Shown here: positions 27,848-53,167 of the stretch, in pieces | Layout: each line of letters begins with the position of its first letter | Position numbering within the stretch: the first letter of the stretch is position 1 | The notes under the pieces: generated by a model | The model's input: the letters and a program-made list of their open reading frames with translations, nothing else | Databases searched by the model: none | What the model was told of the DNA's origin: nothing | Origin: Nitrospirota bacterium | GTDB lineage: Bacteria; Nitrospirota; Nitrospiria; Nitrospirales; Nitrospiraceae | Direction of reading: 5' to 3' | Assembly (NCBI GenBank): GCA_963701855.1 | Contig: CAVPBK010000006.1 | Location: 1,152,001-1,216,000, forward strand | Length of the DNA stretch: 64,000 bases | Program-made: the position numbers and the translations under genes

Positions 27848-29212
27848 ATGAACGCAGCAGAAAGTAAGCCACCCAGCCTGCCGAAGAACGCGGTAGTCTA
27901 CACGTTGCTTCAGGTGGAAGGGAAGATTCGCGCCGTCCAGAACCAGCAAGAACTACAATTTCTCTTCGTCAATGAAACGCGTCGGTTGGTTCCCTATCAA
28001 CAAGCAATACTGCTCAGCCCGCTGACCCCGTCGGCACAAAGTTATCAGGTAAGAGCCGCATCGAGTATCCCGGTGGTGGATCGCACCGTGCCCTTGATGC
28101 AATGGACCGAGCGATTGATTGGAGGTCTGCGCAAGACTTCGACAGGGCCGGACATGTGTCACGTCACGGAAACGGATTGCCCTGCCGAGCTCAGACCAGA
28201 CTGGAAAGAATTTACTCCAGGCTATGGATTGTGGTGCCCTCTCAAGCACCCCGGGGGACAGATTATTGGCGGCCTGTGGATGACGCGGGACCAGCCCTGG
28301 GCAGACCATGAGGTGCCGATCCTGCAGCGTCTCAGCGAAGCCTATGCCTATGCCTGGCACGCCGTCGGCCGATCGAACAGCCGTCGGTGGAGATGGGGAC
28401 TGAGCCGGACCACGACATGGATACTCGCAATTGCAACGCTGGGCGCACTGGCCATTCCCGTCCCCATGTCGACGCTGGCGCCTGCGAAGATTGTCGCAAA
28501 GGATCCCCTGATCGTGAGCGCGCCGATCGATGGTGTCATCGCCGAGATTCTCGTCCTCCCCAATACTGTCGTGTCCGAAGGCCAAGTGTTGTTCAAGTAC
28601 GAAGACACCACGTTCAGAAGCGAGTATGACGTTGCGGAACGGAACCTTGATGTGGCGATGGCGCAGTATCGGCGCGCGGCGCAAGGCTCATTCGTAGAAG
28701 CCGACCAAAAGGCCGATGTTCCGTTGTTGAAAGCCGAAGTCGAGTTGCGAGAAACCGAGCGGAACTATGCCCATGAACGATTGACGAAGGTCGAGGTGAA
28801 GGCGGAGCAGGCCGGGCTGTTGCTCTACTCGGACAAGTCCGATTGGATCGGAAAGCCGGTCGTGGTCGGCCAACGCATCATGGAACTGGCGAACCCACAG
28901 CAGCTGGAGGTGCGGATCGATCTGCCGGTGGAGGATGCCATTGTGTTGCGCGAAGGCGCATCGGCGACGCTGTTCCTGAATGCCAATCCTTTTTCCAGCG
29001 TTCCTGCTACGGTCAGTCATGCGAGCTACCATGCCGAGGTCTTGCCGAACAATACGCTGGCCTACCGTGTGACGGCACAGCTCGAGCAAGGATCATCGGA
29101 ATTCCGCATAGGCTGGCAAGGCAGCGCAAAAATATACGGAGAGCAGGTGCTGCTGTTCACCTATCTGTTCCGTCGCCCGATTTCCGCCATCCGACCATGG
29201 ATCGGCCTATGA
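27848..29212 (+). CDS. HlyD-family adaptor with N-terminal GAF-like cytoplasmic domain
   Basis: N-terminal FVNETRRLVPYQQA...GGLWMTRD region, one TM, VSAPIDGVI, RIGWQGSAKIYG, YLFRRP. Confidence 0.85.
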   Translation: MNAAESKPPSLPKNAVVYTLLQVEGKIRAVQNQQELQFLFVNETRRLVPYQQAILLSPLTPSAQSYQVRAASSIPVVDRTVPLMQWTERLIGGLRKTSTGPDMCHVTETDCPAELRPDWKEFTPGYGLWCPLKHPGGQIIGGLWMTRDQPWADHEVPILQRLSEAYAYAWHAVGRSNSRRWRWGLSRTTTWILAIATLGALAIPVPMSTLAPAKIVAKDPLIVSAPIDGVIAEILVLPNTVVSEGQVLFKYEDTTFRSEYDVAERNLDVAMAQYRRAAQGSFVEADQKADVPLLKAEVELRETERNYAHERLTKVEVKAEQAGLLLYSDKSDWIGKPVVVGQRIMELANPQQLEVRIDLPVEDAIVLREGASATLFLNANPFSSVPATVSHASYHAEVLPNNTLAYRVTAQLEQGSSEFRIGWQGSAKIYGEQVLLFTYLFRRPISAIRPWIGL

Positions 29213-40500: not shown

Positions 40501-43500
40501 AGATCAACGCGGCCCTGGGGACGCTGGCCTATCAAGGCAATCTGAACTTCAATGGCAGCGACGTGCTCACGGTGACGAGCAGCGATGGCACGCTCACCGA
40601 CGTGGACACGGTGGCGTTGACGGTGACGCCGGTGAACGATGCGCCGGTGAACACGGTGCCGGGGCCGCAGACGGTGGCCGAGGATACGGCGCTGGCGCTC
40701 GGCGGGGTGAGCGTCACGGATGTGGACGGCAACCTGAGCACGGTGCAGCTGGGGGTGGCGAACGGGACGGTGACGGTGAGCCTGGTGGGCGGCGCGACGA
40801 TCAGTGCGGGGGCGAACGGCACGGGCACGCTGACCTTGGCGGGCACGGCGGCGCAGATCAACGCGGCCCTGGGGACGCTGGCCTATCAAGGCAATCTGAA
40901 CTTCAATGGCAGCGACGTGCTCACGGTGACGAGCAGCGATGGCACGCTCACCGACGTGGACACGGTGGCGTTGACGGTGACGCCGGTGAACGATGCGCCG
41001 GTGAACACGGTGCCGGGGCCGCAGACGGTGGCCGAGGATACGGCGCTGGCGCTCGGCGGGGTGAGCGTCACGGATGTGGACGGCAACCTGAGCACGGTGC
41101 AGCTGGGGGTGGCGAACGGGACGGTGACGGTGAGCCTGGTGGGCGGCGCGACGATCAGTGCGGGGGCGAACGGCACGGGCACGCTGACCTTGGCGGGCAC
41201 GGCGGCGCAGATCAACGCGGCCCTGGGGACGCTGGCCTATCAAGGCAATCTGAACTTCAATGGCAGCGACGTGCTCACGGTGACGAGCAGCGATGGCACG
41301 CTCACCGACGTGGACACGGTGGCGTTGACGGTGACGCCGGTGAACGATGCGCCGGTGAACACGGTGCCGGGGCCGCAGACGGTGGCCGAGGATACGGCGC
41401 TGGCGCTCGGCGGGGTGAGCGTCACGGATGTGGACGGCAACCTGAGCACGGTGCAGCTGGGGGTGGCGAACGGGACGGTGACGGTGAGCCTGGTGGGCGG
41501 CGCGACGATCAGTGCGGGGGCGAACGGCACGGGCACGCTGACCTTGGCGGGCACGGCGGCGCAGATCAACGCGGCCCTGGGGACGCTGGCCTATCAAGGC
41601 AATCTGAACTTCAATGGCAGCGACGTGCTCACGGTGACGAGCAGCGATGGCACGCTCACCGACGTGGACACGGTGGCGTTGACGGTGACGCCGGTGAACG
41701 ATGCGCCGGTGAACACGGTGCCGGGGCCGCAGACGGTGGCCGAGGATACGGCGCTGGCGCTCGGCGGGGTGAGCGTCACGGATGTGGACGGCAACCTGAG
41801 CACGGTGCAGCTGGGGGTGGCGAACGGGACGGTGACGGTGAGCCTGGTGGGCGGCGCGACGATCAGTGCGGGGGCGAACGGCACGGGCACGCTGACCTTG
41901 GCGGGCACGGCGGCGCAGATCAACGCGGCCCTGGGGACGCTGGCCTATCAAGGCAATCTGAACTTCAATGGCAGCGACGTGCTCACGGTGACGAGCAGCG
42001 ATGGCACGCTCACCGACGTGGACACGGTGGCGTTGACGGTGACGCCGGTGAACGATGCGCCGGTGAACACGGTGCCGGGGCCGCAGACGGTGGCCGAGGA
42101 TACGGCGCTGGCGCTCGGCGGGGTGAGCGTCACGGATGTGGACGGCAACCTGAGCACGGTGCAGCTGGGGGTGGCGAACGGGACGGTGACGGTGAGCCTG
42201 GTGGGCGGCGCGACGATCAGTGCGGGGGCGAACGGCACGGGCACGCTGACCTTGGCGGGCACGGCGGCGCAGATCAACGCGGCCCTGGGGACGCTGGCCT
42301 ATCAAGGCAATCTGAACTTCAATGGCAGCGACGTGCTCACGGTGACGAGCAGCGATGGCACGCTCACCGACGTGGACACGGTGGCGTTGACGGTGACGCC
42401 GGTGAACGATGCGCCGGTGAACACGGTGCCGGGGCCGCAGACGGTGGCCGAGGATACGGCGCTGGCGCTCGGCGGGGTGAGCGTCACGGATGTGGACGGC
42501 AACCTGAGCACGGTGCAGCTGGGGGTGGCGAACGGGACGGTGACGGTGAGCCTGGTGGGCGGCGCGACGATCAGTGCGGGGGCGAACGGCACGGGCACGC
42601 TGACCTTGGCGGGCACGGCGGCGCAGATCAACGCGGCCCTGGGGACGCTGGCCTATCAAGGCAATCTGAACTTCAATGGCAGCGACGTGCTCACGGTGAC
42701 GAGCAGCGATGGCACGCTCACCGACGTGGACACGGTGGCGTTGACGGTGACGCCGGTGAACGATGCGCCGGTGAACACGGTGCCGGGGCCGCAGACGGTG
42801 GCCGAGGATACGGCGCTGGCGCTCGGCGGGGTGAGCGTCACGGATGTGGACGGCAACCTGAGCACGGTGCAGCTGGGGGTGGCGAACGGGACGGTGACGG
42901 TGAGCCTGGTGGGCGGCGCGACGATCAGTGCGGGGGCGAACGGCACGGGCACGCTGACCTTGGCGGGCACGGCGGCGCAGATCAACGCGGCCCTGGGGAC
43001 GCTGGCCTATCAAGGCAATCTGAACTTCAATGGCAGCGACGTGCTCACGGTGACGAGCAGCGATGGCACGCTCACCGACGTGGACACGGTGGCGTTGACG
43101 GTGACGCCGGTGAACGATGCGCCGGTGAACACGGTGCCGGGGCCGCAGACGGTGGCCGAGGATACGGCGCTGGCGCTCGGCGGGGTGAGCGTCACGGATG
43201 TGGACGGCAACCTGAGCACGGTGCAGCTGGGGGTGGCGAACGGGACGGTGACGGTGAGCCTGGTGGGCGGCGCGACGATCAGTGCGGGGGCGAACGGCAC
43301 GGGCACGCTGACCTTGGCGGGCACGGCGGCGCAGATCAACGCGGCCCTGGGGACGCTGGCCTATCAAGGCAATCTGAACTTCAATGGCAGCGACGTGCTC
43401 ACGGTGACGAGCAGCGATGGCACGCTCACCGACGTGGACACGGTGGCGTTGACGGTGACGCCGGTGAACGATGCGCCGGTGAACACGGTGCCGGGGCCGC

Positions 43501-46500
43501 AGACGGTGGCCGAGGATACGGCGCTGGCGCTCGGCGGGGTGAGCGTCACGGATGTGGACGGCAACCTGAGCACGGTGCAGCTGGGGGTGGCGAACGGGAC
43601 GGTGACGGTGAGCCTGGTGGGCGGCGCGACGATCAGTGCGGGGGCGAACGGCACGGGCACGCTGACCTTGGCGGGCACGGCGGCGCAGATCAACGCGGCC
43701 CTGGGGACGCTGGCCTATCAAGGCAATCTGAACTTCAATGGCAGCGACGTGCTCACGGTGACGAGCAGCGATGGCACGCTCACCGACGTGGACACGGTGG
43801 CGTTGACGGTGACGCCGGTGAACGATGCGCCGGTGAACACGGTGCCGGGGCCGCAGACGGTGGCCGAGGATACGGCGCTGGCGCTCGGCGGGGTGAGCGT
43901 CACGGATGTGGACGGCAACCTGAGCACGGTGCAGCTGGGGGTGGCGAACGGGACGGTGACGGTGAGCCTGGTGGGCGGCGCGACGATCAGTGCGGGGGCG
44001 AACGGCACGGGCACGCTGACCTTGGCGGGCACGGCGGCGCAGATCAACGCGGCCCTGGGGACGCTGGCCTATCAAGGCAATCTGAACTTCAATGGCAGCG
44101 ACGTGCTCACGGTGACGAGCAGCGATGGCACGCTCACCGACGTGGACACGGTGGCGTTGACGGTGACGCCGGTGAACGATGCGCCGGTGAACACGGTGCC
44201 GGGGCCGCAGACGGTGGCCGAGGATACGGCGCTGGCGCTCGGCGGGGTGAGCGTCACGGATGTGGACGGCAACCTGAGCACGGTGCAGCTGGGGGTGGCG
44301 AACGGGACGGTGACGGTGAGCCTGGTGGGCGGCGCGACGATCAGTGCGGGGGCGAACGGCACGGGCACGCTGACCTTGGCGGGCACGGCGGCGCAGATCA
44401 ACGCGGCCCTGGGGACGCTGGCCTATCAAGGCAATCTGAACTTCAATGGCAGCGACGTGCTCACGGTGACGAGCAGCGATGGCACGCTCACCGACGTGGA
44501 CACGGTGGCGTTGACGGTGACGCCGGTGAACGATGCGCCGGTGAACACGGTGCCGGGGCCGCAGACGGTGGCCGAGGATACGGCGCTGGCGCTCGGCGGG
44601 GTGAGCGTCACGGATGTGGACGGCAACCTGAGCACGGTGCAGCTGGGGGTGGCGAACGGGACGGTGACGGTGAGCCTGGTGGGCGGCGCGACGATCAGTG
44701 CGGGGGCGAACGGCACGGGCACGCTGACCTTGGCGGGCACGGCGGCGCAGATCAACGCGGCCCTGGGGACGCTGGCCTATCAAGGCAATCTGAACTTCAA
44801 TGGCAGCGACGTGCTCACGGTGACGAGCAGCGATGGCACGCTCACCGACGTGGACACGGTGGCGTTGACGGTGACGCCGGTGAACGATGCGCCGGTGAAC
44901 ACGGTGCCGGGGCCGCAGACGGTGGCCGAGGATACGGCGCTGGCGCTCGGCGGGGTGAGCGTCACGGATGTGGACGGCAACCTGAGCACGGTGCAGCTGG
45001 GGGTGGCGAACGGGACGGTGACGGTGAGCCTGGTGGGCGGCGCGACGATCAGTGCGGGGGCGAACGGCACGGGCACGCTGACCTTGGCGGGCACGGCGGC
45101 GCAGATCAACGCGGCCCTGGGGACGCTGGCCTATCAAGGCAATCTGAACTTCAATGGCAGCGACGTGCTCACGGTGACGAGCAGCGATGGCACGCTCACC
45201 GACGTGGACACGGTGGCGTTGACGGTGACGCCGGTGAACGATGCGCCGGTGAACACGGTGCCGGGGCCGCAGACGGTGGCCGAGGATACGGCGCTGGCGC
45301 TCGGCGGGGTGAGCGTCACGGATGTGGACGGCAACCTGAGCACGGTGCAGCTGGGGGTGGCGAACGGGACGGTGACGGTGAGCCTGGTGGGCGGCGCGAC
45401 GATCAGTGCGGGGGCGAACGGCACGGGCACGCTGACCTTGGCGGGCACGGCGGCGCAGATCAACGCGGCCCTGGGGACGCTGGCCTATCAAGGCAATCTG
45501 AACTTCAATGGCAGCGACGTGCTCACGGTGACGAGCAGCGATGGCACGCTCACCGACGTGGACACGGTGGCGTTGACGGTGACGCCGGTGAACGATGCGC
45601 CGGTGAACACGGTGCCGGGGCCGCAGACGGTGGCCGAGGATACGGCGCTGGCGCTCGGCGGGGTGAGCGTCACGGATGTGGACGGCAACCTGAGCACGGT
45701 GCAGCTGGGGGTGGCGAACGGGACGGTGACGGTGAGCCTGGTGGGCGGCGCGACGATCAGTGCGGGGGCGAACGGCACGGGCACGCTGACCTTGGCGGGC
45801 ACGGCGGCGCAGATCAACGCGGCCCTGGGGACGCTGGCCTATCAAGGCAATCTGAACTTCAATGGCAGCGACGTGCTCACGGTGACGAGCAGCGATGGCA
45901 CGCTCACCGACGTGGACACGGTGGCGTTGACGGTGACGCCGGTGAACGATGCGCCGGTGAACACGGTGCCGGGGCCGCAGACGGTGGCCGAGGATACGGC
46001 GCTGGCGCTCGGCGGGGTGAGCGTCACGGATGTGGACGGCAACCTGAGCACGGTGCAGCTGGGGGTGGCGAACGGGACGGTGACGGTGAGCCTGGTGGGC
46101 GGCGCGACGATCAGTGCGGGGGCGAACGGCACGGGCACGCTGACCTTGGCGGGCACGGCGGCGCAGATCAACGCGGCCCTGGGGACGCTGGCCTATCAAG
46201 GCAATCTGAACTTCAATGGCAGCGACGTGCTCACGGTGACGAGCAGCGATGGCACGCTCACCGACGTGGACACGGTGGCGTTGACGGTGACGCCGGTGAA
46301 CGATGCGCCGGTGAACACGGTGCCGGGGCCGCAGACGGTGGCCGAGGATACGGCGCTGGCGCTCGGCGGGGTGAGCGTCACGGATGTGGACGGCAACCTG
46401 AGCACGGTGCAGCTGGGGGTGGCGAACGGGACGGTGACGGTGAGCCTGGTGGGCGGCGCGACGATCAGTGCGGGGGCGAACGGCACGGGCACGCTGACCT

Positions 46501-49088
46501 TGGCGGGCACGGCGGCGCAGATCAACGCGGCCCTGGGGACGCTGGCCTATCAAGGCAATCTGAACTTCAATGGCAGCGACGTGCTCACGGTGACGAGCAG
46601 CGATGGCACGCTCACCGACGTGGACACGGTGGCGTTGACGGTGACGCCGGTGAACGATGCGCCGGTGAACACGGTGCCGGGGCCGCAGACGGTGGCCGAG
46701 GATACGGCGCTGGCGCTCGGCGGGGTGAGCGTCACGGATGTGGACGGCAACCTGAGCACGGTGCAGCTGGGGGTGGCGAACGGGACGGTGACGGTGAGCC
46801 TGGTGGGCGGCGCGACGATCAGTGCGGGGGCGAACGGCACGGGCACGCTGACCTTGGCGGGCACGGCGGCGCAGATCAACGCGGCCCTGGGGACGCTGGC
46901 CTATCAAGGCAATCTGAACTTCAATGGCAGCGACGTGCTCACGGTGACGAGCAGCGATGGCACGCTCACCGACGTGGACACGGTGGCGTTGACGGTGACG
47001 CCGGTGAACGATGCGCCGGTGAACACGGTGCCGGGGCCGCAGACGGTGGCCGAGGATACGGCGCTGGCGCTCGGCGGGGTGAGCGTCACGGATGTGGACG
47101 GCAACCTGAGCACGGTGCAGCTGGGGGTGGCGAACGGGACGGTGACGGTGAGCCTGGTGGGCGGCGCGACGATCAGTGCGGGGGCGAACGGCACGGGCAC
47201 GCTGACCTTGGCGGGCACGGCGGCGCAGATCAACGCGGCCCTGGGGACGCTGGCCTATCAAGGCAATCTGAACTTCAATGGCAGCGACGTGCTCACGGTG
47301 ACGAGCAGCGATGGCACGCTCACCGACGTGGACACGGTGGCGTTGACGGTGACGCCGGTGAACGATGCGCCGGTGAACACGGTGCCGGGGCCGCAGACGG
47401 TGGCCGAGGATACGGCGCTGGCGATCGGCGGGGTGAGCGTCACGGATGTGGACGGCAACCTGAGCACGGTGCAGCTGGGGGTGGCGAACGGGACGGTGAC
47501 GGTGAGCCTGGTGGGCGGCGCGACGATCAGTGCGGGGGCGAACGGCACGGGCACGCTGACCTTGGCGGGCACGGCGGCGCAGATCAACGCGGCCCTGGGG
47601 ACGCTGGCCTATCAAGGCAATCTGAACTTCAATGGCAGCGACGTGCTCACGGTGACGAGCAGCGATGGCACGCTCACCGACGTGGACACGGTGGCGTTGA
47701 CGGTGACGCCGGTGAACGATGCGCCGGTGAACACGGTGCCGGGGCCGCAGACGGTGGCCGAGGATACGGCGCTGGCGATCGGCGGGGTGAGCGTCACGGA
47801 TGTGGACGGCAACCTGAGCACGGTGCAGCTGGGGGTGGCGAACGGGACGGTGACGGTGAGCCTGGTGGGCGGCGCGACGATCAGTGCGGGGGCGAACGGC
47901 ACGGGCACGCTGACCTTGGCGGGCACGGCGGCGCAGATCAACGCGGCCCTGGGGACGCTGGCCTATCAAGGCAATCTGAACTTCAATGGCAGCGACGTGC
48001 TCACGGTGACGAGCAGCGATGGCACGCTCACCGACGTGGACACGGTGGCGTTGACGGTGACGCCGGCGCCGAATATTGTTCCGAGTCTTGCCACGAATGC
48101 GGGCTCGACGGTCGTCCAGGGATTGACCGATCTCATTACTCTAGGCGAATTGCAAGTTACGGACGCGGACAACACTCCGGCCCAACTAATCTACACGGTG
48201 ACCGTAGGACCGGTGCATGGTCAACTCGAACTGACGACAGCCCCTGGCGTGGTGATCGTGAGTTTCACGCAAGCGGATATCGATGCGGGGCGACTGGTGT
48301 ACGTTAACAACGGAGCCAACAGCACGAGTGATAGTTTTACCTTTACGGTTAGCGATGGCGCCGGAGGCATGATCGGGGCGACAGCGTTTAATATCACGGT
48401 TACGCCGTTTTTCCCCCCACCGCTCCCGCCCCCGTCCCCGCCCCCTCTCCCTCCCCCGGACCCAGTTCCCGTCCCCATCACTGTACTTGGCCCTCCTGGA
48501 CCAATCCCCGGCGATGTTGTGCCGCCTGTGTTGCCACCACCACCAGTGCTGGTTACGACGGTTGGCGCAATCGACGATCCAGTGCGGCGAGCGGCAATGC
48601 CGAGTCGAACGTTTGCCAGGGTGGAGCAGCAGGATATCGTACTCGAAGAGCCATCAGCTCTTGAGCTGGAGCCGCTTTCGAATCCGGTTAAGACAATGTT
48701 GGCCGCGGGCCATAAATTCGCTGAGCATTTGACCAGACTGGCCGACAACCTCGAACGAGCGATTGAAGAGCGTGAAAACCAGGCGCGCCTCATTGGGCGG
48801 GTGGCATCGTTCGCCGGGATGACCTTATCTGTAGGATTCGTGGCGTGGATCCTGCGCGGCGGAGCTTTAGTGACAAGTTTTCTCGTCTCGATGCCGGCCT
48901 GGCGCCACTTCGATCCTTTGCCGGTACTGGGTTCGACTAGCAGAGATCGCCGGAAACGCGATCGCAAGGTGCGTGAGGAACATGAACAGGAGAACAAGGA
49001 GTTCCGAGGTCTGGATCGGGTGCTGAAATCATCGCCAAAATCGGCCAAGCAGCAAGAGACGGACCGCGCGAGGAGACCGAAGTCATAA
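31557..49088 (+). CDS. Giant repetitive surface protein/adhesin (5843 aa): LEPR-XLL-like leader, DUF4347, beta-helix, 36 tandem Ig/cadherin-like repeats, CSPG-type domain, Pro-rich linker, C-terminal TM
   Basis: ALESRIMFDG; IDAIHLIG..DLLIYGCNFG..LTGADVAASTD (DUF4347); VTNTNDSGAGSLR and GN.IG repeats; VNDAP repeats; SFTQADIDAGRLVY..DSFTFTVSDG; LSVGFVAWILRGG..MPAWRHFDPLPVL. Confidence 0.92.
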   Translation: MKILRRQKKAAGKPARGQRPASADTRITLSTFGGSLIALESRIMFDGAAVATVSTVTTEQIAQSQADKALSNHDAAAADSAPAAPTGDPHSTTSDQALFDALAAYDTSAARQEVVFLSPSVLDYQQLLDGISPNVEVHILDPGRDGVQQMAEILAGRTGIDAIHLIGDGTEAEMHLGASFLTQDSISTTYAEQFQQIGRSLSANADLLIYGCNFGQGVDGQLAINKLADLTGADVAASTDRTGSAAEYADWKLEVSTGAIETSVVISASTQAAWEHALATFTVTNTNDSGAGSLRQEILVANAAGGTDTIVFNIAGAGVHTINLASALPTITDKVTIDGYTEAGSSVNTLSVGDNAVLTIELNGTGAGSANGLWLGAGSDGSTIRGLVINRFSLDGIQIDSTGNLIVGNWIGVDNTGTLDFGNGVDGITNSANNNTIGTSAVADRNVLSGNDDEGVDVDPGITGIVIQGNYIGTNAMGTAAVPNGDLANANSGGVLLGGDGTVFGGSLPGQGNLVSGNLIDGILIDGIGNDVVYGNLIGTNAAGTAGIANSGPGIWINGGSNSSIGGTAAGQGNTIAYNTDDGIQIAPATSTGNVILGNSIFANTGLGIDLGNNGVTANDAGDGDTGANNLQNFPVLTSAQISASQVTVAGSLNSTANSQFRVEFFSDSAQDPTGYGQGRTYLGFVNVTTNGSGNANFNTTLAATVPADSYVTATATRSNATFTAFTNTSEFAQDRVATYTPIVDLNSGPAIVTTGPVVVSTTTSTTNLVSSGNFGTVANGTPPAPWVESGTAGNGSVVLAAGNGRYDWVDGNATGTTITQALTIPASTSNSTVSTTNTATSTSVVTTTVDTVDAITSISFDMAWQNTDVTGSNNNNTLIISYNGVTYATFETFQRGTANAAGLVGNWTYSNGATGPATTLSVTDEVTGAMTPITINLPAGITVSSSLQFRYTIGSTGTGSDDLAIDNVVATSTKTTTTSVTTVTTTADTADNNWTATYTENGPAVSIADTDSSIFDSNSTNIVSAAITLTNPAAGDRLLVNGSAAASGTLASGIAWTRTDTAVTLSGSFTKAQYADAIEFIQFENTTDTPSTTPRTINVTVNDGTSNSNTAIATLTVTAVNDAPVVDLNAAGAGQDVTTAFTEQTPVLIAPVGTLTDVDSANLTSLTVTLTTRPDGNAVESLSLNAAATAAAAGAGLTVSYTPASGLLSITGAATKAVYQTILQGILYNDTSDTPTTSNRSITVVANDGTTASATQTVTLTVTAVNDAPVVDLNAAGAGQDVTTAFTEQTPVLIAPVGTLTDVDSANLTSLTVTLTTRPDGNAVESLSLNAAATAAAAGAGLTVSYTPASGLLSITGAATKAVYQTILQGILYNDTSDTPTTSNRSITVVANDGTTASATQTVTLTVTAVNDAPVVDLNAAGAGQDVTTAFTEQTPVLIAPVGTLTDVDSANLTSLTVTLTTRPDGNAVESLSLNAAATAAAAGAGLTVSYTPASGLLSITGAATKAVYQTILQGILYNDTSDTPTTSNRSITVVANDGTTASATQTVTLTVTAVNDAPVVDLNAAGAGQDVTTAFTEQTPVLIAPVGTLTDVDSANLTSLTVTLTTRPDGNAVESLSLNAAATAAAAGAGLTVSYTPASGLLSITGAATKAVYQTILQGILYNDTSDTPTTSNRSITVVANDGTTASATQTVTLTVTAVNDAPVVDLNAAGAGQDVTTAFTEQTPVLIAPVGTLTDVDSANLTSLTVTLTTRPDGNAVESLSLNAAATAAAAGAGLTVSYTPASGLLSITGAATKAVYQTILQGILYNDTSDTPTTSNRSITVVANDGTTASATQTVALTVTPVNDAPVNTVPGPQTVAEDTALALGGVSVTDVDGNLSTVQLGVANGTVTVSLVGGATISAGANGTGTLTLAGTAAQINAALGTLAYQGNLNFNGSDVLTVTSSDGTLTDVDTVALTVTPVNDAPVNTVPGPQTVAEDTALALGGVSVTDVDGNLSTVQLGVANGTVTVSLVGGATISAGANGTGTLTLAGTAAQINAALGTLAYQGNLNFNGSDVLTVTSSDGTLTDVDTVALTVTPVNDAPVNTVPGPQTVAEDTALALGGVSVTDVDGNLSTVQLGVANGTVTVSLVGGATISAGANGTGTLTLAGTAAQINAALGTLAYQGNLNFNGSDVLTVTSSDGTLTDVDTVALTVTPVNDAPVNTVPGPQTVAEDTALALGGVSVTDVDGNLSTVQLGVANGTVTVSLVGGATISAGANGTGTLTLAGTAAQINAALGTLAYQGNLNFNGSDVLTVTSSDGTLTDVDTVALTVTPVNDAPVNTVPGPQTVAEDTALALGGVSVTDVDGNLSTVQLGVANGTVTVSLVGGATISAGANGTGTLTLAGTAAQINAALGTLAYQGNLNFNGSDVLTVTSSDGTLTDVDTVALTVTPVNDAPVNTVPGPQTVAEDTALALGGVSVTDVDGNLSTVQLGVANGTVTVSLVGGATISAGANGTGTLTLAGTAAQINAALGTLAYQGNLNFNGSDVLTVTSSDGTLTDVDTVALTVTPVNDAPVNTVPGPQTVAEDTALALGGVSVTDVDGNLSTVQLGVANGTVTVSLVGGATISAGANGTGTLTLAGTAAQINAALGTLAYQGNLNFNGSDVLTVTSSDGTLTDVDTVALTVTPVNDAPVNTVPGPQTVAEDTALALGGVSVTDVDGNLSTVQLGVANGTVTVSLVGGATISAGANGTGTLTLAGTAAQINAALGTLAYQGNLNFNGSDVLTVTSSDGTLTDVDTVALTVTPVNDAPVNTVPGPQTVAEDTALALGGVSVTDVDGNLSTVQLGVANGTVTVSLVGGATISAGANGTGTLTLAGTAAQINAALGTLAYQGNLNFNGSDVLTVTSSDGTLTDVDTVALTVTPVNDAPVNTVPGPQTVAEDTALALGGVSVTDVDGNLSTVQLGVANGTVTVSLVGGATISAGANGTGTLTLAGTAAQINAALGTLAYQGNLNFNGSDVLTVTSSDGTLTDVDTVALTVTPVNDAPVNTVPGPQTVAEDTALALGGVSVTDVDGNLSTVQLGVANGTVTVSLVGGATISAGANGTGTLTLAGTAAQINAALGTLAYQGNLNFNGSDVLTVTSSDGTLTDVDTVALTVTPVNDAPVNTVPGPQTVAEDTALALGGVSVTDVDGNLSTVQLGVANGTVTVSLVGGATISAGANGTGTLTLAGTAAQINAALGTLAYQGNLNFNGSDVLTVTSSDGTLTDVDTVALTVTPVNDAPVNTVPGPQTVAEDTALALGGVSVTDVDGNLSTVQLGVANGTVTVSLVGGATISAGANGTGTLTLAGTAAQINAALGTLAYQGNLNFNGSDVLTVTSSDGTLTDVDTVALTVTPVNDAPVNTVPGPQTVAEDTALALGGVSVTDVDGNLSTVQLGVANGTVTVSLVGGATISAGANGTGTLTLAGTAAQINAALGTLAYQGNLNFNGSDVLTVTSSDGTLTDVDTVALTVTPVNDAPVNTVPGPQTVAEDTALALGGVSVTDVDGNLSTVQLGVANGTVTVSLVGGATISAGANGTGTLTLAGTAAQINAALGTLAYQGNLNFNGSDVLTVTSSDGTLTDVDTVALTVTPVNDAPVNTVPGPQTVAEDTALALGGVSVTDVDGNLSTVQLGVANGTVTVSLVGGATISAGANGTGTLTLAGTAAQINAALGTLAYQGNLNFNGSDVLTVTSSDGTLTDVDTVALTVTPVNDAPVNTVPGPQTVAEDTALALGGVSVTDVDGNLSTVQLGVANGTVTVSLVGGATISAGANGTGTLTLAGTAAQINAALGTLAYQGNLNFNGSDVLTVTSSDGTLTDVDTVALTVTPVNDAPVNTVPGPQTVAEDTALALGGVSVTDVDGNLSTVQLGVANGTVTVSLVGGATISAGANGTGTLTLAGTAAQINAALGTLAYQGNLNFNGSDVLTVTSSDGTLTDVDTVALTVTPVNDAPVNTVPGPQTVAEDTALALGGVSVTDVDGNLSTVQLGVANGTVTVSLVGGATISAGANGTGTLTLAGTAAQINAALGTLAYQGNLNFNGSDVLTVTSSDGTLTDVDTVALTVTPVNDAPVNTVPGPQTVAEDTALALGGVSVTDVDGNLSTVQLGVANGTVTVSLVGGATISAGANGTGTLTLAGTAAQINAALGTLAYQGNLNFNGSDVLTVTSSDGTLTDVDTVALTVTPVNDAPVNTVPGPQTVAEDTALALGGVSVTDVDGNLSTVQLGVANGTVTVSLVGGATISAGANGTGTLTLAGTAAQINAALGTLAYQGNLNFNGSDVLTVTSSDGTLTDVDTVALTVTPVNDAPVNTVPGPQTVAEDTALALGGVSVTDVDGNLSTVQLGVANGTVTVSLVGGATISAGANGTGTLTLAGTAAQINAALGTLAYQGNLNFNGSDVLTVTSSDGTLTDVDTVALTVTPVNDAPVNTVPGPQTVAEDTALALGGVSVTDVDGNLSTVQLGVANGTVTVSLVGGATISAGANGTGTLTLAGTAAQINAALGTLAYQGNLNFNGSDVLTVTSSDGTLTDVDTVALTVTPVNDAPVNTVPGPQTVAEDTALALGGVSVTDVDGNLSTVQLGVANGTVTVSLVGGATISAGANGTGTLTLAGTAAQINAALGTLAYQGNLNFNGSDVLTVTSSDGTLTDVDTVALTVTPVNDAPVNTVPGPQTVAEDTALALGGVSVTDVDGNLSTVQLGVANGTVTVSLVGGATISAGANGTGTLTLAGTAAQINAALGTLAYQGNLNFNGSDVLTVTSSDGTLTDVDTVALTVTPVNDAPVNTVPGPQTVAEDTALALGGVSVTDVDGNLSTVQLGVANGTVTVSLVGGATISAGANGTGTLTLAGTAAQINAALGTLAYQGNLNFNGSDVLTVTSSDGTLTDVDTVALTVTPVNDAPVNTVPGPQTVAEDTALALGGVSVTDVDGNLSTVQLGVANGTVTVSLVGGATISAGANGTGTLTLAGTAAQINAALGTLAYQGNLNFNGSDVLTVTSSDGTLTDVDTVALTVTPVNDAPVNTVPGPQTVAEDTALALGGVSVTDVDGNLSTVQLGVANGTVTVSLVGGATISAGANGTGTLTLAGTAAQINAALGTLAYQGNLNFNGSDVLTVTSSDGTLTDVDTVALTVTPVNDAPVNTVPGPQTVAEDTALALGGVSVTDVDGNLSTVQLGVANGTVTVSLVGGATISAGANGTGTLTLAGTAAQINAALGTLAYQGNLNFNGSDVLTVTSSDGTLTDVDTVALTVTPVNDAPVNTVPGPQTVAEDTALAIGGVSVTDVDGNLSTVQLGVANGTVTVSLVGGATISAGANGTGTLTLAGTAAQINAALGTLAYQGNLNFNGSDVLTVTSSDGTLTDVDTVALTVTPVNDAPVNTVPGPQTVAEDTALAIGGVSVTDVDGNLSTVQLGVANGTVTVSLVGGATISAGANGTGTLTLAGTAAQINAALGTLAYQGNLNFNGSDVLTVTSSDGTLTDVDTVALTVTPAPNIVPSLATNAGSTVVQGLTDLITLGELQVTDADNTPAQLIYTVTVGPVHGQLELTTAPGVVIVSFTQADIDAGRLVYVNNGANSTSDSFTFTVSDGAGGMIGATAFNITVTPFFPPPLPPPSPPPLPPPDPVPVPITVLGPPGPIPGDVVPPVLPPPPVLVTTVGAIDDPVRRAAMPSRTFARVEQQDIVLEEPSALELEPLSNPVKTMLAAGHKFAEHLTRLADNLERAIEERENQARLIGRVASFAGMTLSVGFVAWILRGGALVTSFLVSMPAWRHFDPLPVLGSTSRDRRKRDRKVREEHEQENKEFRGLDRVLKSSPKSAKQQETDRARRPKS
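34898..37072 (+). repeat. Tandem repeat, 5 x 435 bp (145 aa), apparently identical
   Basis: 435-bp periodicity in the sequence and in the five antisense ORFs. Confidence 0.95.
37068..48066 (+). repeat. Tandem repeat, 31 x 354 bp (118 aa) plus a short partial unit
   Basis: 354-bp periodicity (antisense ORF starts 37321 to 47941 give 31 copies). The last two copies carry CTC->ATC (L->I). Confidence 0.95.
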
Positions 49089-51001
49089 TGCGAGTGACGC
49101 CGTTGGTGTGGATAAGTTTTGGACTGGTCGGTCTTACGATCAGTATCATGATGGCGGGCGATGTGTTCGTCAACTTGGTGCCAAACCGCGATCGCCAGGT
49201 ATTCGAATACCGGCGTGATTTGGCGGAATCGTTGGCGATTCAGTACTCGGCGCTGGCGGAGCGTGACCAGATCGAGACAGTGAAATTTGCGATGGAGACG
49301 CTGGTCAAGCGGATTCCGGATATCTTGTCGCTGGCGCTTCTCCATGAAAACGGGATAGTTGTCGCACAGATTGGCGACCATGCGGGAGTATGGGTCCAGC
49401 CGCCTGGTAAAGAGTCCACCCTCGAGTTTCTCCAAGTTCCGATCTTTTCCGGTGACCAAAGGTGGGGCGTGCTTCAGATTGCGTTTCGCCAAGTGAACGT
49501 GTCCGGTCTTCAGTGGTTCCTCACGGATCCGTGGGTACGCTTCTTGGCGTTTGTCAGTGTGTCGGGATTCGTCGGCTACCTCCTCTTCATGAAACGCACC
49601 CTCCGTCAGCTCGATCCTTCCGGCATTGTTCCCACTCGGGTGAAGTCCGCGCTCGATGCGCTTACGCAAGGCGTGGTTATGATCGATACGCGAGATTTAA
49701 TCGTCTTGGCGAACGATACCTTCTGCCAGGCTGTGGGAAAGCCGGTGACGTCGTTGATTGGATCAGACCTTAGCACCTTGTCGTGGACGTTTGCCGCTTC
49801 ATCCGACACGGTGTTGGTGTATCCCTGGACAGAGGCAATCATGGAAAAGCAACCCCAAGCAGACAGGCCTCTTCTTCTGGGGCTTCCTGATGGTGGATCG
49901 CGAAAGTTCATCGTCAATACCGTGCCGATTATGGACGACGCGTCCACGATTAGAGGGGCTCTGGTCTCCTTCCACGATGTCACCGAACTCGATCGAGCGA
50001 ATTCTTCCCTCCGGGAAGCGAACAGCGAGTTGGAGTTGTCCCGCTTCCAAATTCTGGAGAAGAACCAGGAACTTGAAACGACAAATACGAGCCTTCATGT
50101 CGAGATGAGAGAACGGAAAAGAGTTCAGGCAGAGAAAGAAGAACTGCATCAACAACTTGTGCTGGCGTCGCGCCAAGCCGGCATGGCAGATGTGGCGTCG
50201 AGCGTGCTGCACAACGTCGGGAATGTACTCACTAGCATTAACGTGTCGACGGATACCTTGCTGAAGACCCTCAAGAAGCCGATGGTGGGAGACGTTTGCC
50301 GAATTGCTTCGATGTTTCATGAGCATCAGGACGATTTAGAGGCATTTCTGACACAAGATTCAAAGGGCAAGCAGATTCCCTCGTATTTGGGCATGGTTGC
50401 CGAGTCTCTGAGCGGAAGTCACCAGACCATCCAGAGCGAAATCGACTCTCTCGTGAAAAAAATCGACCATGTCAAACAAGTGATCATGTCGCAGCAGGAT
50501 ATCGCCCACGCAGGGAATATCCGTGAGGCGACGACGGTCGAGGACTTGATGGAGGAAGCCTTGTTAATGGGGATGCCCGAGCCGGAGAAGTACGGTATCC
50601 GCGTCGTGCGGGAGTACACTCATGTTCCAGCCATCATGACGGATCGACATCATGTCCTCCAGATTCTGGTGAATATTATTACCAATGCCAAGAACTCCAT
50701 GGTCGAATATCCGGCGAACTCGCGCTGCCTCACGGTCCGAATCGTGTTGCCTACCGACCGCACAGGATCCGTGCGATTGGAGGTGATCGATACCGGTGGC
50801 GGCATAAAAGCTGAAAACCTCCCACGTTTGTTTAGTCAGGGTTTTACGACGAGAAAGGCCGGACATGGCCTTGGTCTTCACAGCGCCGCTATCTCCGCCA
50901 ATAAGCTTGGTGGAACCATACAAGCCCGGAGTGAGGGAGAAGGGCGCGGCGCCACCTTCATGCTCGATCTCCCATTGGTCTTAGCGGAGGCCGCCGCATG
51001 A
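49088..51001 (+). CDS. Membrane sensor histidine kinase (2 TM, periplasmic domain, PAS, HisKA, HATPase)
   Basis: TAATG overlap with the giant gene; H-box VLHNVGNVL, N-box NIITNA, DTGGG, FTT, GHGLGL. Confidence 0.93.
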   Translation: MRVTPLVWISFGLVGLTISIMMAGDVFVNLVPNRDRQVFEYRRDLAESLAIQYSALAERDQIETVKFAMETLVKRIPDILSLALLHENGIVVAQIGDHAGVWVQPPGKESTLEFLQVPIFSGDQRWGVLQIAFRQVNVSGLQWFLTDPWVRFLAFVSVSGFVGYLLFMKRTLRQLDPSGIVPTRVKSALDALTQGVVMIDTRDLIVLANDTFCQAVGKPVTSLIGSDLSTLSWTFAASSDTVLVYPWTEAIMEKQPQADRPLLLGLPDGGSRKFIVNTVPIMDDASTIRGALVSFHDVTELDRANSSLREANSELELSRFQILEKNQELETTNTSLHVEMRERKRVQAEKEELHQQLVLASRQAGMADVASSVLHNVGNVLTSINVSTDTLLKTLKKPMVGDVCRIASMFHEHQDDLEAFLTQDSKGKQIPSYLGMVAESLSGSHQTIQSEIDSLVKKIDHVKQVIMSQQDIAHAGNIREATTVEDLMEEALLMGMPEPEKYGIRVVREYTHVPAIMTDRHHVLQILVNIITNAKNSMVEYPANSRCLTVRIVLPTDRTGSVRLEVIDTGGGIKAENLPRLFSQGFTTRKAGHGLGLHSAAISANKLGGTIQARSEGEGRGATFMLDLPLVLAEAAA

Positions 51002-51873
51002 AGCATGACGAAAGGACTGACAATCGACGCATTCTGGTCATCGACGACAATGTCTCAATCCATGAGGACTTTCGTAAGATCTTAGCGCCGCTGAAAGATT
51101 CTGACGCGCTCGAGCAGGCGCGGGCGGTCTTGTTCGGAGAGGCGCCAAGCCTTCCTTCACAGGTGAACTACGAGCTCGAGGTTGCGAGTCGGGGGCGAGA
51201 GGGGTGCGGTATGGTCCATACCGCTTGCGGAGAGGGCCGCCCCTATGCGATGGCCTTCGTGGACATGCGTATGCCGCCGGGGTGGGACGGTCTCGAAACG
51301 ATCGAGAATCTGTGGTATGTCGATCCCGACCTCGAGATCGTGATCTGCACTGCCTATTCCGATCATCCATGGGAAGATCTGAGTCGCCGAATCGGGAACA
51401 CCGATAAGCTGCTCATCCTGATGAAACCCTTCAACAGCATCGAAGTCGTCCAACTGGCAAATTCGCTCACGAAGAAATGGAACCTGACACGTTTGCTAAA
51501 GCTGCAGATTGAAAGCTTTAATTCCTCCGTGAGCCAGCGGGCGACCGACTTGCGTGAAGCGAACGACCGTCTCAAAACAAACATCGCCCAGAGAATCCAG
51601 GAGATTATGAAGGATCAACCTCAGAGCGATGTCTCGGCAGCGTTCCGTCAGAAAGAGGAGTTTTTAACGATTATGAGCCATGAAATACTCACGCCCATGA
51701 ATGAATTGGTCGACAAGGTGAGCCTGTTGTCTGACGGCCCGCTCAATCCTGGGCAGCAAGAGCACGTGACGACCATACAGAGATGCGCGCAAGATCTCCT
51801 TGCCCTCCACAACGACATGCACGAGTTCATGGCTGGCCGGAGACAAGAAGCTCGGACTGGAGGTCGTCAATGA
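50998..51873 (+). CDS. Response regulator: REC plus C-terminal HisKA-like helix pair without ATPase domain
   Basis: ILVIDDN, FVDMRMPPGWDG, CTAYSD, KPF; FLTIMSHEILTPMN; ATGA overlap with the kinase. Confidence 0.88.
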   Translation: MKHDERTDNRRILVIDDNVSIHEDFRKILAPLKDSDALEQARAVLFGEAPSLPSQVNYELEVASRGREGCGMVHTACGEGRPYAMAFVDMRMPPGWDGLETIENLWYVDPDLEIVICTAYSDHPWEDLSRRIGNTDKLLILMKPFNSIEVVQLANSLTKKWNLTRLLKLQIESFNSSVSQRATDLREANDRLKTNIAQRIQEIMKDQPQSDVSAAFRQKEEFLTIMSHEILTPMNELVDKVSLLSDGPLNPGQQEHVTTIQRCAQDLLALHNDMHEFMAGRRQEARTGGRQ

Positions 51874-51910
51874 TGACGGCTATCCCGTCGACGTGGGCAG
51901 AAAGAAATAC

Positions 51911-53167
51911 ATGACTAAGGATACCGATAATCAAAACCTTCGAGTCTTGGTCATCGATGACAACAAGGCTATCCACGATGACTTTCGAAAAATCCTTCAA
52001 GCGAAGGCCGAGGAGGAGAGTTTCGATCAAGCGCGGGCGGCGTTGTTCGGCGATCCGCCGCTCTCGGAGGCGTTCGAACGGTTCGAACTAGACTGCGTTG
52101 ATCAGGGGCAAGCCGGTCTCATCTTGATGCAGAGGGCACGGAATGAAGGCCGCCCGTATGCGGTGGCGTTTGTTGATATGAGGATGCCGCCCGGGTGGGA
52201 CGGCCTGGAAACTATCGAACGCCTCTGGAAAGAGGACGCAGGGCTTCAGGTGGTCATCTGTACAGCATATTCCGACCAACCGTGGGACGAAATCACAAAA
52301 CGTATTGGCCGGAATGACAAGTTGCTGATTCTTCAGAAACCGTTTAACAGCATTGAAGTGTCACAACTTGCTACCGCACTCTGTCGAAAATGGGATCTTT
52401 CACATGAGGTAGCAGGACAACTGAATGAATTGAGCAGACAGGTCGACAAACGCACGGCAGAACTCCAGGGCGCGAACGAGCTACTGACTCAATCCAATGC
52501 GGCCTTGGTGCGAACCGTGGCAGATCTTGAAGTGGCTCAAGCGGAAATTTTGCGACAAAACGTTGAACTGGAACGGCTCGCGTCTCGAGATCCGCTCACC
52601 GGATGTTTCAACCGCCGCGCCTTTTACGTGCAATTTGAGAAAGCTTTTGCTGAGAGTCGCGAACATAACTCCGAGCTGTACTGTCTGATGGTTGACATCG
52701 ACAATTTTAAACGTGTTAACGACCAATTTGGACATGCGGTGGGGGACCAGGCCATCCAAGCGGTAGCCAGCTGCCTGAGCGCCGGGCTGCGATTGACGGA
52801 CACCGTCGGTCGCTATGGCGGAGAGGAATTCTGTTTGATGTTCCCGCGCACCACGCTGGCAGAAGCCTCTAATCTGGCAGAACGTCTTCGGATTCAGGTC
52901 GAAACAGAGGCTGGGGACAGGGTGCGAACGGTATCCCGTTTGGTAATCACAGTGAGTTGCGGTATTTCATCTACAGCACTTGGAGCGCGAACGCCTTTGG
53001 AGCTGATTGATCAAGCGGACAAGGCTCTCTATGCGGCCAAGGAAGGTGGGCGCAATTGTGTCATGGCTCTTGATCCGATTATCGCCGGGGCGAACGCATC
53101 CGATCAGCTTGAGCCGCAAGTCAGGCGGATCACTTCACGGGTGTCGAGCCCATCGGCGTCCCGGTAA
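51911..53167 (+). CDS. REC-GGDEF diguanylate cyclase
   Basis: REC paralogous to the upstream gene; DPLTGCFNRR, DIDNFK.VND.FGH..GD, RLTD I-site, GGEEF. Confidence 0.93.
   Translation: MTKDTDNQNLRVLVIDDNKAIHDDFRKILQAKAEEESFDQARAALFGDPPLSEAFERFELDCVDQGQAGLILMQRARNEGRPYAVAFVDMRMPPGWDGLETIERLWKEDAGLQVVICTAYSDQPWDEITKRIGRNDKLLILQKPFNSIEVSQLATALCRKWDLSHEVAGQLNELSRQVDKRTAELQGANELLTQSNAALVRTVADLEVAQAEILRQNVELERLASRDPLTGCFNRRAFYVQFEKAFAESREHNSELYCLMVDIDNFKRVNDQFGHAVGDQAIQAVASCLSAGLRLTDTVGRYGGEEFCLMFPRTTLAEASNLAERLRIQVETEAGDRVRTVSRLVITVSCGISSTALGARTPLELIDQADKALYAAKEGGRNCVMALDPIIAGANASDQLEPQVRRITSRVSSPSASR

Follow-up and report, generated by a model that had tools for sequence, protein, structure and literature searches.

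A conserved C-terminal module of giant LEPR-XLL/DUF4347 surface proteins and a candidate route for their export and anchoring

Introduction

How could a protein of several thousand residues be brought to the cell surface and held there without a Sec signal peptide and without a C-terminal RTX array? This question is raised by a locus of a Nitrospirota bacterium (GenBank assembly GCA_963701855.1, contig CAVPBK010000006.1). The stretch analysed, below called the window, comprises 64,000 nucleotides (positions 1,152,001 to 1,216,000 of the contig, forward strand), and all coordinates are those of the window. It contains a single giant open reading frame (ORF) at 31557-49088 on the plus strand (17.5 kb, 5,843 residues), the product of which is called the cargo. 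Genes for a TolC-like channel and for periplasmic adaptors precede it, and a histidine kinase gene follows. Giant adhesins of diderm bacteria are thought to be exported tail first by type 1 secretion, driven by an ATP-binding cassette (ABC) protein, and to be held by an N-terminal plug. In a preliminary description of this DNA, the inverse arrangement was proposed: exit with the N-terminus first and tethering in the inner membrane by a C-terminal transmembrane segment with a basic tail.

The last ~135 residues of the cargo were found to be a conserved C-terminal module of giant LEPR-XLL/DUF4347 surface proteins, without an existing family model. The module is new as a described element and generalises the earlier observation of the tail. 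It defines a large family with the set of signals opposite to that of the known giant adhesins, an N-terminal leader and a C-terminal membrane helix, with named members in Nitrospira, Planctomycetota and a gammaproteobacterial symbiont. The locus encodes a form of TolC/adaptor export without a pump, a variant on which hardly anything has been published.

The giant protein and its tail

From the repeat body to the stop codon, the ORF is composed as follows.

34898..48066, plus strand: tandem-repeat body of cadherin-like/Ig-like domains, with a 435-bp unit in 5.1 copies and a 354-bp unit in 31.1 copies (Tandem Repeats Finder, Pfam)
48405..48590, plus strand: Pro-rich linker behind the last cadherin-like domain; its densest window of 40 residues has 22 Pro (translation)
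48684..48803, plus strand: acidic helix running directly into the hydrophobic helix (predicted by AlphaFold2 from a 31-sequence alignment)
48804..48902, plus strand: 33-residue hydrophobic helix, residues 5750-5782, with conserved G, W, R, G, L and S; putative inner-membrane span
48903..48929, plus strand: membrane-proximal motif RHFDPLPVL; the family consensus PxWRxFDPLPVL starts within the helix
48942..49085, plus strand: charged tail with the basic cluster RDRRKRDRKVR and the distal motif EFRGLDRVL (translation, alignment)

The reading frame of the tail region begins at 48411 and not at 48410 (one base later), and its translation contains every tail element that the preliminary description had listed. 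The last Cadherin_3 domain (Pfam E 1.3e-23) is followed by the Pro-rich PFFPPPLPPPSPPPLPPPDPVPVP..., a charged helical stretch, ASFAGMTLSVGFVAWILRGGALVTSFLVSMPAW, RHFDPLPVL and RDRRKRDRKVR. At the very end of the ORF, the 33-residue hydrophobic segment leads into PAWRHFDPLPVL and then into the basic tail. After RDRRKRDRKVR, 45 further residues of mixed charge are encoded before the stop codon at 49086-49088, and the last 75 residues hold 19 K/R versus 11 D/E.

Hydropathy was calculated with the Kyte-Doolittle scale in a 19-residue window. The maximum of the whole protein was located at residues 5759-5777 (mean 1.78), and only three windows reached 1.4, none of them at the N-terminus. The absence of a Sec signal peptide, as described before, was borne out by the lack of any hydrophobic N-terminal segment in this plot. 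The same holds for the absence of an RTX array: GGxGxD occurs 0 times in the 5,843 residues, and HemolysinCabind gave no match in Pfam scans of the whole cargo. Judged from hydropathy and the AlphaFold2 model, the cargo appears to lack a Sec signal and to have one predicted transmembrane segment.

The copies within both the 435-bp and the 354-bp array are 99% identical, and Pfam assigned Cadherin_4, Big_9, Cadherin_3 and Cadherin_5 domains to the repeat body. Opposite the cargo gene, on the minus strand, an antisense ORF of 3,707 residues (36846-47969) and 23 periodic ORFs of 109 amino acids, one per 354 bp (39824-47941), were recorded. Since they coincide with the 99%-identical 354-bp tandem repeats, they most likely result from the repeat structure and do not represent genes.

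Conservation of the C-terminal module

The last 185 residues of the cargo were searched with phmmer against 1.84 billion cluster representatives. This resulted in 3,885 matches at E<=1e-3; 262 of these reach E<=1e-10, and 14 reach E<=1e-30. The motif after the helix was found 25-83 residues (median 44) from the protein end in 129 of the 150 listed matches, namely in those that could be scored; the tail pattern is far beyond chance.

Thirty-one module members were aligned (alignment A1). W56 and P72 are invariant among them, G52, R59, G61, W74, D78, P79 and P81 are conserved in at least 90%, and L83 in 81%. The family core reads LSAGFVxWxLRGGSLLASxLxxLPxWRxFDPLPVL. A short distal motif (E-x-L-x-x-L-F/L-D-like) is kept in members with acidic tails and in those with basic tails. 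Of 55 homologues, 52 have a net negative charge in the 60 residues preceding the helix.

Structure prediction of the 135-residue module with AlphaFold2, based on the 31 sequences, gave a mean predicted local distance difference test (pLDDT) value of 87.4, with values of 84-96 in blocks up to module residue 70. One helix was modelled from residue 2 to residue 75, which breaks at residues 76-80 (HFDPL) and is followed by two tail helices. Since the model has this single helix, the acidic pre-helix and the hydrophobic stretch are read as continuous. The preliminary description had made its proposal depend on a transmembrane segment that recurs in homologues; the segment is conserved and is predicted as one continuous helix. 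A hairpin or re-entrant loop, considered for the conserved R-G-G in the middle of the segment, was dropped on account of this model (pLDDT >90).

No existing model covers the module. Pfam matched 0 of the 31 members, NCBIfam matched 1 of 31 with a chance-level GrpE hit, a profile search of the PDB gave a best E of 0.45, and a search of the ESM Atlas returned unnamed clusters only. No description of the module or of the cargo was found in the literature searched; the portions considered of a paper on DDxP proteins (PMC7730722) and of a review of tripartite systems (PMC8277102) cover neither.

An ORF of 164 residues with little beyond the C-terminal module was observed at another locus (L004, G225:C3, 1453-1947). 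It lies beside a transposase-like ORF (assigned by inspection of the sequence only) and just before a new leader-bearing giant gene. It was rejected as a minimal cargo in view of the transposase-like neighbour and the missing leader, and probably represents what is left of the 3' end of a cargo gene that was disrupted.

The export cassette and the N-terminal leader

The genes upstream of the cargo and the N-terminal features of the cargo itself are listed below.

25522..27060, plus strand: TolC-like outer-membrane factor, lipoprotein with LSSC lipobox (Pfam OEP, E 2.6e-32; N-terminal hydrophobic segment and Cys)
26826..27845, plus strand: short membrane-fusion protein MFP1, true start likely near 27027 (HlyD_3, E 2.4e-16; TIGR01730, 118.9 bits)
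27848..29212, plus strand: membrane-fusion protein MFP2 with a cytoplasmic N-domain of ~190 residues, one transmembrane segment (192-210) and an HlyD-type periplasmic part (HlyD_3, E 2.1e-14)
29197..31341, plus strand, open from 28843: three-part fusion of an RRE/PqqD-like domain, an M50 intramembrane metalloprotease and an HlyD-type adaptor (MFP3)
31557..31781, plus strand: cargo leader with a basic start, then the conserved core SLIALESRIMFDGAAVAT, without a hydrophobic signal-peptide core
31896..32390, plus strand: DUF4347 domain (PF14252; residues 114-278, 179 bits, E 7.8e-53, above the gathering score)

One transmembrane segment was assigned to MFP1 (ORF residues 85-103). In the N-domain of MFP2 (27848-28420), a GAF match of E 0.0031 and 18.5 bits stayed below the cut-off of 22.4. 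At a locus from a distant metagenome (L206, 297-2456), the adaptor before the M50 fusion carries a WD40 beta-propeller (HlyD_D23, E 3.7e-16; WD40, E 5.5e-40); as far as domain matches can tell, this shows that adaptors of the cassette accept varied extra domains.

The fusion protein matched Peptidase_M50 (E 2.3e-8) and HlyD_3 (E 3.7e-16) of Pfam. Its best NCBIfam match was NF041824, the daptide HExxH protease, with 172.2 bits (E 1.7e-50) and a cut-off of 300 bits that was not reached; by this profile the protein is related to NF041824 and is not an equivalog. Both signature motifs of site-2 proteases, HExxH and NxxPxxxxDG, are intact as HELGH and NLSPFMRFDGYY (NLSPFMRFDG), and H209, E210, H213, N303, P306, D311 and G312 are invariant in 28 M50 orthologues.

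The N-terminal 150 residues of the fusion protein (predicted fold, pLDDT 74.7) resemble the recognition elements (RREs) of peptides that are synthesized ribosomally and then modified post-translationally (RiPPs). Structural comparison by VIA-align gave Z 9.7 to 6jx3_B, a lasso-peptide B1 protein with bound leader (82 aligned residues, root-mean-square deviation 2.9), 9.1 to 5v1u_A (TbiB1) and 8.6 to the PqqD structure 5sxy. The top 11 Foldseek matches were all RRE proteins, the best with an E of only 7.8e-3, and Pfam PqqD reached only E 0.014. In the predicted model the N-domain has the three-strand sheet and the three-helix winged fold of solved RREs.

A ligand for such a domain is suggested by the start of the cargo. 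The first ~55 residues are conserved as a basic start, a variable spacer and SLIALESRIMFDGAAVAT, with L39, E40, R42, M44, F45, D46, A48, A51 and T52 invariant in 20 aligned leaders. Distant module-bearing relatives with LEPRVLYSA or a similar sequence matched the LEPR-XLL model NF012209 with 30.2, 24.0 and 24.5 bits (cut-off 17), one relative of the Nitrospira clade reached 15.0 bits, and the first 150 residues of the cargo in the window gave no match at E<=10. The core LESRIMFDGAA is here taken, on the alignment, as a diverged form of LEPR-XLL, because it aligns with the leaders of these relatives. Among 28 module-bearing proteins of >1,000 residues, 14 begin with the leader, 3 at MFDAAAA inside the leader and 11 inside repeats; the three suggest miscalled starts, and the 11 are fragments.

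Two side observations concern this region. In one related cargo (L092, 6008-6337) an in-frame stop lies inside the leader, which may mark a pseudogene or a sequencing error in the metagenome bin. The DUF4347 domains of other relatives (L004, L181, L190) contain HI(V/I)SHG and, further on, YGC, possibly as a His/Cys pair; the domain in the window has HLIGDG at the first site and keeps YGC.

Complex prediction was carried out with the leader (75 residues, 20-row alignment) and the RRE-M50 part of the fusion protein (450 residues, 28 rows), together with three controls. The pair scored 0.59 (runs 0.59, 0.61 and 0.58), the best control 0.01; the pLDDT of the partner was at least 41, and the runs agreed in at least 59% of contacts. 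Of 157 solved pairs, 116 reach the mark of the tool, as do 2 of 215 mismatches, and scores of up to 0.60 count as weak. The prediction thus scored lends weak support to a leader-RRE-M50 complex.

Co-occurrence and gene order

The same 401 genomes of the phylum were searched for the module and for the M50 orthologue, which was counted as present at E below 1e-120. The module was found in 43 genomes and the M50 orthologue in 48; both were present in 41, the module only in 2, M50 only in 7 and neither in 351. All positives belong to one order, and counts from related genomes are not independent of each other. One of the two module-only genomes holds a remnant with a stop codon, and one of the seven M50-only genomes a broken M50 gene. 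Module and M50 lie on one contig in 25 of the 41 genomes, with the nearest module 4.5-19.5 kb from the M50 start in 24 of these 25. The genome of the window has exactly one module and one fusion gene.

Seventy genome loci were collected via a 3-sequence module alignment; the set is biased to Nitrospira-like sequences, and nearly all are labelled Nitrospira or Nitrospiraceae. The order channel, adaptor, adaptor, M50 fusion, cargo, kinase recurs where the cargo fits into the 10-kb flank. The fusion gene directly precedes the N-terminus of the cargo in 11 of 16 testable loci, and in two more the cassette follows the kinase genes. An ABC gene is absent from this conserved order at the related loci. 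At one further locus (L139, G325:C85, 14226-18999), an ORF of 660 residues directly follows the M50 fusion and no leader-bearing cargo is visible; the cargo gene may have been lost.

Proposed export and anchoring

It is possible, and is proposed tentatively, that the cargo is exported head first through a duct and held by its C-terminus, with the module as a stop-transfer inner-membrane anchor and docking element. The RRE of the fusion protein would bind the cargo leader in the cytoplasm, and the M50 protease would probably clip it. The chain would then enter the adaptor/TolC duct N-terminus first, without an ABC pump, until the C-terminal helix acts as stop-transfer and remains lodged in the inner membrane, within the machine's transmembrane bundle or next to it. 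The ~130 residues from the last cadherin domain to the helix, that is the Pro-rich stretch and the helical region, would sit in the duct. An extended linker of ~130 residues could exceed 30 nm, about the length of tripartite assemblies. The tail would be cytoplasmic in this clade and may report to the histidine kinase and GGDEF genes that follow. A precedent is the intramembrane M50 protease EpeP, for which a double role, in cleavage and in export of a leader-bearing peptide, is assumed (PMC10885120).

The intact protease permits a different use of the helix. The helix may anchor the protein while M50 cuts near the Pro-rich motif at its cytoplasmic end and so releases the adhesin, a switch by regulated intramembrane proteolysis that the kinase/GGDEF genes might control. 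The catalytic motifs are intact and invariant, the helix-breaking residues P72, D78, P79 and P81 at the helix end form the most conserved part of the module, module and M50 occur together in 41 of 43 genomes, and regulators of the cyclic di-GMP (c-di-GMP) type are encoded next door; the active site of site-2 proteases is embedded in the membrane near the cytoplasmic face. Against this stand the RRE and the weak complex score, which indicate the N-terminal leader as the ligand, the opposite membrane orientation of known site-2 protease substrates, and the retention of the cassette where the cargo has no canonical module. Release by cleavage of the anchor is therefore regarded as unlikely.

Head-first export with a C-terminal anchor has itself to be weighed against a number of results. 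No motor candidate is evident at the locus. The ABC-type family TIGR01842 had 29 matches in the genome, 0 of them within the window and 0 above the family cut-off, and the genome has one SecA_DEAD match, in a 931-residue frame ~220 kb from the locus, which is the canonical SecA; a second SecA was not found there. The complex prediction concerns the leader and not the C-terminal module, and its support is weak. The co-occurrence comes from one order. Outside Nitrospirota the cassette is mostly not adjacent: an M50 fusion was seen in 1 of 63 distant metagenome loci and an MFP3-type adaptor in 3, and the upstream regions of seven such loci hold housekeeping or unrelated genes. Four genomes of the Nitrospira order (L135 to L138, in G381, G331, G052 and G240) have an orthologous cassette and leader with a different C-terminus. 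The cargoes of these four, of 1,269-1,778 residues, carry a hydrophobic stretch of 17-20 residues (e.g. TTMAVGLAGVVLQGAMG) followed by K/R and then an acidic Ser-rich end, without PxW...DPLP, and a protein of ~770 residues, not a kinase, is encoded next. Of 55 homologues, ~65% have a Pro-rich stretch, counted as such from 12 Pro in 40 residues upwards; between its end and the helix lie ~100-130 residues. In the window its densest part ends 88 residues before the hydrophobic helix. The threading of a Pro-rich segment through the channel that was first suggested is hypothetical, and such a segment is not general in the family.

Tail charge belongs to the same series. It was scored over the 15 residues after the motif. 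In close relatives the tail is net positive in 99 of 138 and net negative in 25 of 138, and in 107 of 129 close matches K/R are more numerous behind the helix than in front of it. In diverse giants 17 of 33 tails are net negative and 14 net positive, in distant metagenome loci 31 of 50 and 18 of 50, respectively, and several planctomycete tails consist of consecutive Asp residues. Basicity of the tail is a feature of the clade and not of the family. Owing to the acidic tails in the diverse sets, the positive-inside rule cannot fix the topology family-wide; the earlier argument from this rule stands for the present protein and its close clade. For these, the 33-residue length, the hydropathy and the continuous model helix of the segment are joined by the charge bias, which is not family-wide, and it is plausible that the segment stays in the inner membrane.

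The same acidic tails could be translocated in many relatives. Together with the lack of a Sec signal, an ABC pump or a proven motor, this would also fit a protein that is not exported at all and is tethered by its tail to the cytoplasmic face of the membrane, or an annotation artefact. This is scarcely credible in view of the cadherin-like/Ig-like repeats, which are typical of extracellular proteins, the tight synteny with an outer-membrane channel and periplasmic adaptors, and the conservation of the ORF and of both its ends across phyla.

Direction of export

The N-terminal 300 residues were used in a search that gave 109 giants with DUF4347, between 3,200 and 8,000 residues long and spread over many phyla, and the C-termini of these were classified by a script. 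The module was found in 41, a C-terminal RTX array in 5 and another hydrophobic end in 2; the remaining 61 were of other type or truncated. Named module-bearing members belong to Nitrospira, to the planctomycetes Stieleria and Aureliella, and to Candidatus Thiodiazotropha. Irrespective of the C-terminus, 80 of the 109 have a leader-like motif. A common leader with an optional module fits an anchor on some cargoes better than a universal export signal.

Calcium-binding repeats of classical substrates are located at the end that emerges first. Six module-bearing proteins have at least three GGxGxD motifs each, all of which are placed between 0.07 and 0.49 of the length, whereas in six module-less DUF4347 giants they reach 0.89-0.98 of the length. 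This mirrored position fits what head-first export would predict, in small numbers. DUF4347 also occurs in proteins with C-terminal RTX, and N-terminal architecture alone is no proof of head-first export, a further point on the side of caution.

The occurrence of DUF4347 with C-terminal RTX repeats would also suit export in the classical direction. The module would then be a non-RTX signal that enters first, and leader and DUF4347 would be retained by RRE-M50 until cleaved, in the manner of LapA. Classical type 1 secreted adhesins have their signal at the C-terminus and a module for retention at the N-terminus (PMC8277102). The many acidic tails with the conserved distal amphipathic motif look more like a recognition peptide than like stop-transfer. 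Outside the locus, on contig 11, the genome encodes a type 1-like ABC exporter, which scored 368 bits where the cut-off is 510 bits. On the other hand, the conserved cassette contains no ABC protein, a 30-residue hydrophobic helix is no known type 1 signal and would need to cross the duct, most leader-bearing relatives are without the module, and RTX is N-proximal precisely in the module-bearing proteins. LapG (PF06035) had no match in the genome, which is 97% complete. Tail-first export is accordingly judged quite unlikely.

For exit with the N-terminus first, as originally proposed, there are the conserved leader, the RRE in the fusion protein, the weak complex score, the N-proximal RTX and the lack of an ABC gene at the locus; it is plausible and unproven.

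Downstream kinase and signalling genes

The genes behind the cargo are as follows.

49088..51001, plus strand: membrane sensor histidine kinase with two transmembrane segments, PAS and HATPase (Pfam HATPase_c, PAS)
50998..53167, plus strand: response-regulator/HisKA-like protein and response-regulator-GGDEF diguanylate cyclase (TIGR00254, E 2.2e-48; receiver-type matches)

The ATG of the kinase gene shares one base with the stop codon of the cargo gene (49086-49090), and this overlap suggests translational coupling of the two. Within 1 kb after the module, 44 of 65 genome loci encode a histidine kinase; among the distant metagenome loci, 38 of 63 do so. Receiver and GGDEF genes after the kinase are conserved in many related loci. 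The GAF-like domain of MFP2, the clear GAF domain in a paralogous cassette (see below) and the downstream GGDEF gene offer hints of a nucleotide-regulated export.

The position of the kinase raises the question whether the module serves mainly as its contact, e.g. for reporting the load or presence of the adhesin, with anchoring as a secondary function; the two roles are compatible. The gene overlap and the frequent adjacency of the kinase, which in the distant metagenome loci is rarely accompanied by the cassette, speak for such a role. In G381, where the cargo is without the canonical module, the next gene is not kinase-like (inspection of the N-terminal sequence only), and the conserved helix residues 52, 56, 59, 63 and 66 suggest helix-helix contact. 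Evidence to the contrary comes from 21 of 65 genome loci and from long marine contigs, which have no adjacent kinase, and from the periodicity of conservation, in which no clear helical peak near 100 degrees was found. A signalling element in the first place is considered very improbable.

Head-first export with a C-terminal anchor can be extended by the kinase genes to a new envelope-spanning display route, in which a RiPP-style leader would be read by the fusion protein, a pump-less duct would hold one chain that crosses both membranes from the cytoplasm to the exterior, and the tail of this chain would connect to a histidine kinase/c-di-GMP circuit. In this full form the proposal is somewhat doubtful. 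If true, proteins of thousands of residues would be exported and retained in a way not described before, and substrates would be identified for a locus whose role was called unknown in 2015. It would also suggest how a cell senses its own adhesin from inside, by a direct mechanical or occupancy link between a surface adhesin and signalling. For the nitrite-oxidising Nitrospira, consequences for aggregation and biofilm formation would be conceivable. Being short and sharply defined, the module can be used as a family model and in small reporter cargoes.

Comparison with known systems

The closest published counterpart of the cassette is the locus reported by Kamneva, Poudel and Ward in 2015 (PMC4452313). 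It combines a GAF-adaptor, Peptidase_M50-HlyD, a secondary SecA_DEAD protein, HlyD and sometimes OEP, without an ABC protein; it was reported in Nitrospirae among other phyla, and its biological role was called completely unknown. The window shares with it the Peptidase_M50-HlyD protein, further HlyD adaptors, OEP and the lack of an ABC gene. It differs in that its cassette has no SecA paralogue and a giant cargo gene lies directly downstream. As to the GAF-domain adaptor, the match in the window is below the cut-off, whereas a paralogous cassette of related genomes gave E 8.9e-11 (L133). In the sections of the 2015 paper considered here, no substrate, leader or C-terminal module is named; its supplements may list giant neighbours.

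This second, paralogous cassette was observed at two loci (L133, G289:C1, 8578-19398; L134, G059:C1), with no giant gene adjacent. At L133 it represents the 2015 locus in complete form. Its order is GAF-adaptor, PqqD-M50-adaptor, a SecA_DEAD paralogue of 696 residues, adaptor, an unknown protein of 715 residues, adaptor and OEP. A cassette of this type with SecA_DEAD was not found in the genome of the window.

With the giant RTX adhesins of type 1 secretion (LapA/LapBCE, SiiE/SiiCDF, MpIBP), the locus has in common a giant repeat adhesin encoded next to TolC-like and HlyD-like genes, c-di-GMP-type regulators, and the idea of a chain that is kept threaded through an outer-membrane channel. Here, in contrast, no RTX array, no ABC exporter at the locus and no LapG were found, and the signal is N-terminal. 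Those adhesins are held by an N-terminal plug in the outer-membrane channel, whereas retention in the present case would be by a C-terminal helix in the inner membrane. Existing models of the N-terminus, NF012209 and DUF4347, cover this end only, and the module lies outside them.

The fusion protein resembles the M50 peptidases of RiPP systems with an RRE (daptide NF041824; EpeP/YydH) in having an RRE-like domain beside an intramembrane HExxH protease. Unlike these, it also comprises a periplasmic adaptor and is connected with TolC, and its presumed substrate has 5,843 residues and is not a small peptide.

The module itself is reminiscent of the tripartite sorting signals LPXTG/sortase, PEP-CTERM/exosortase and GlyGly-CTERM/rhombosortase, which presumably resemble it in the combination of a motif, a hydrophobic helix and (in this clade) a basic cluster at the C-terminus of large surface proteins. 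In those signals the motif stands before the helix and the basic end is short; in the module this order is reversed, and the tail extends 25-83 residues beyond the motif and is often acidic. No sortase-like gene belongs to the conserved locus; the partners of the module are instead adaptors, an M50 protease and a kinase.

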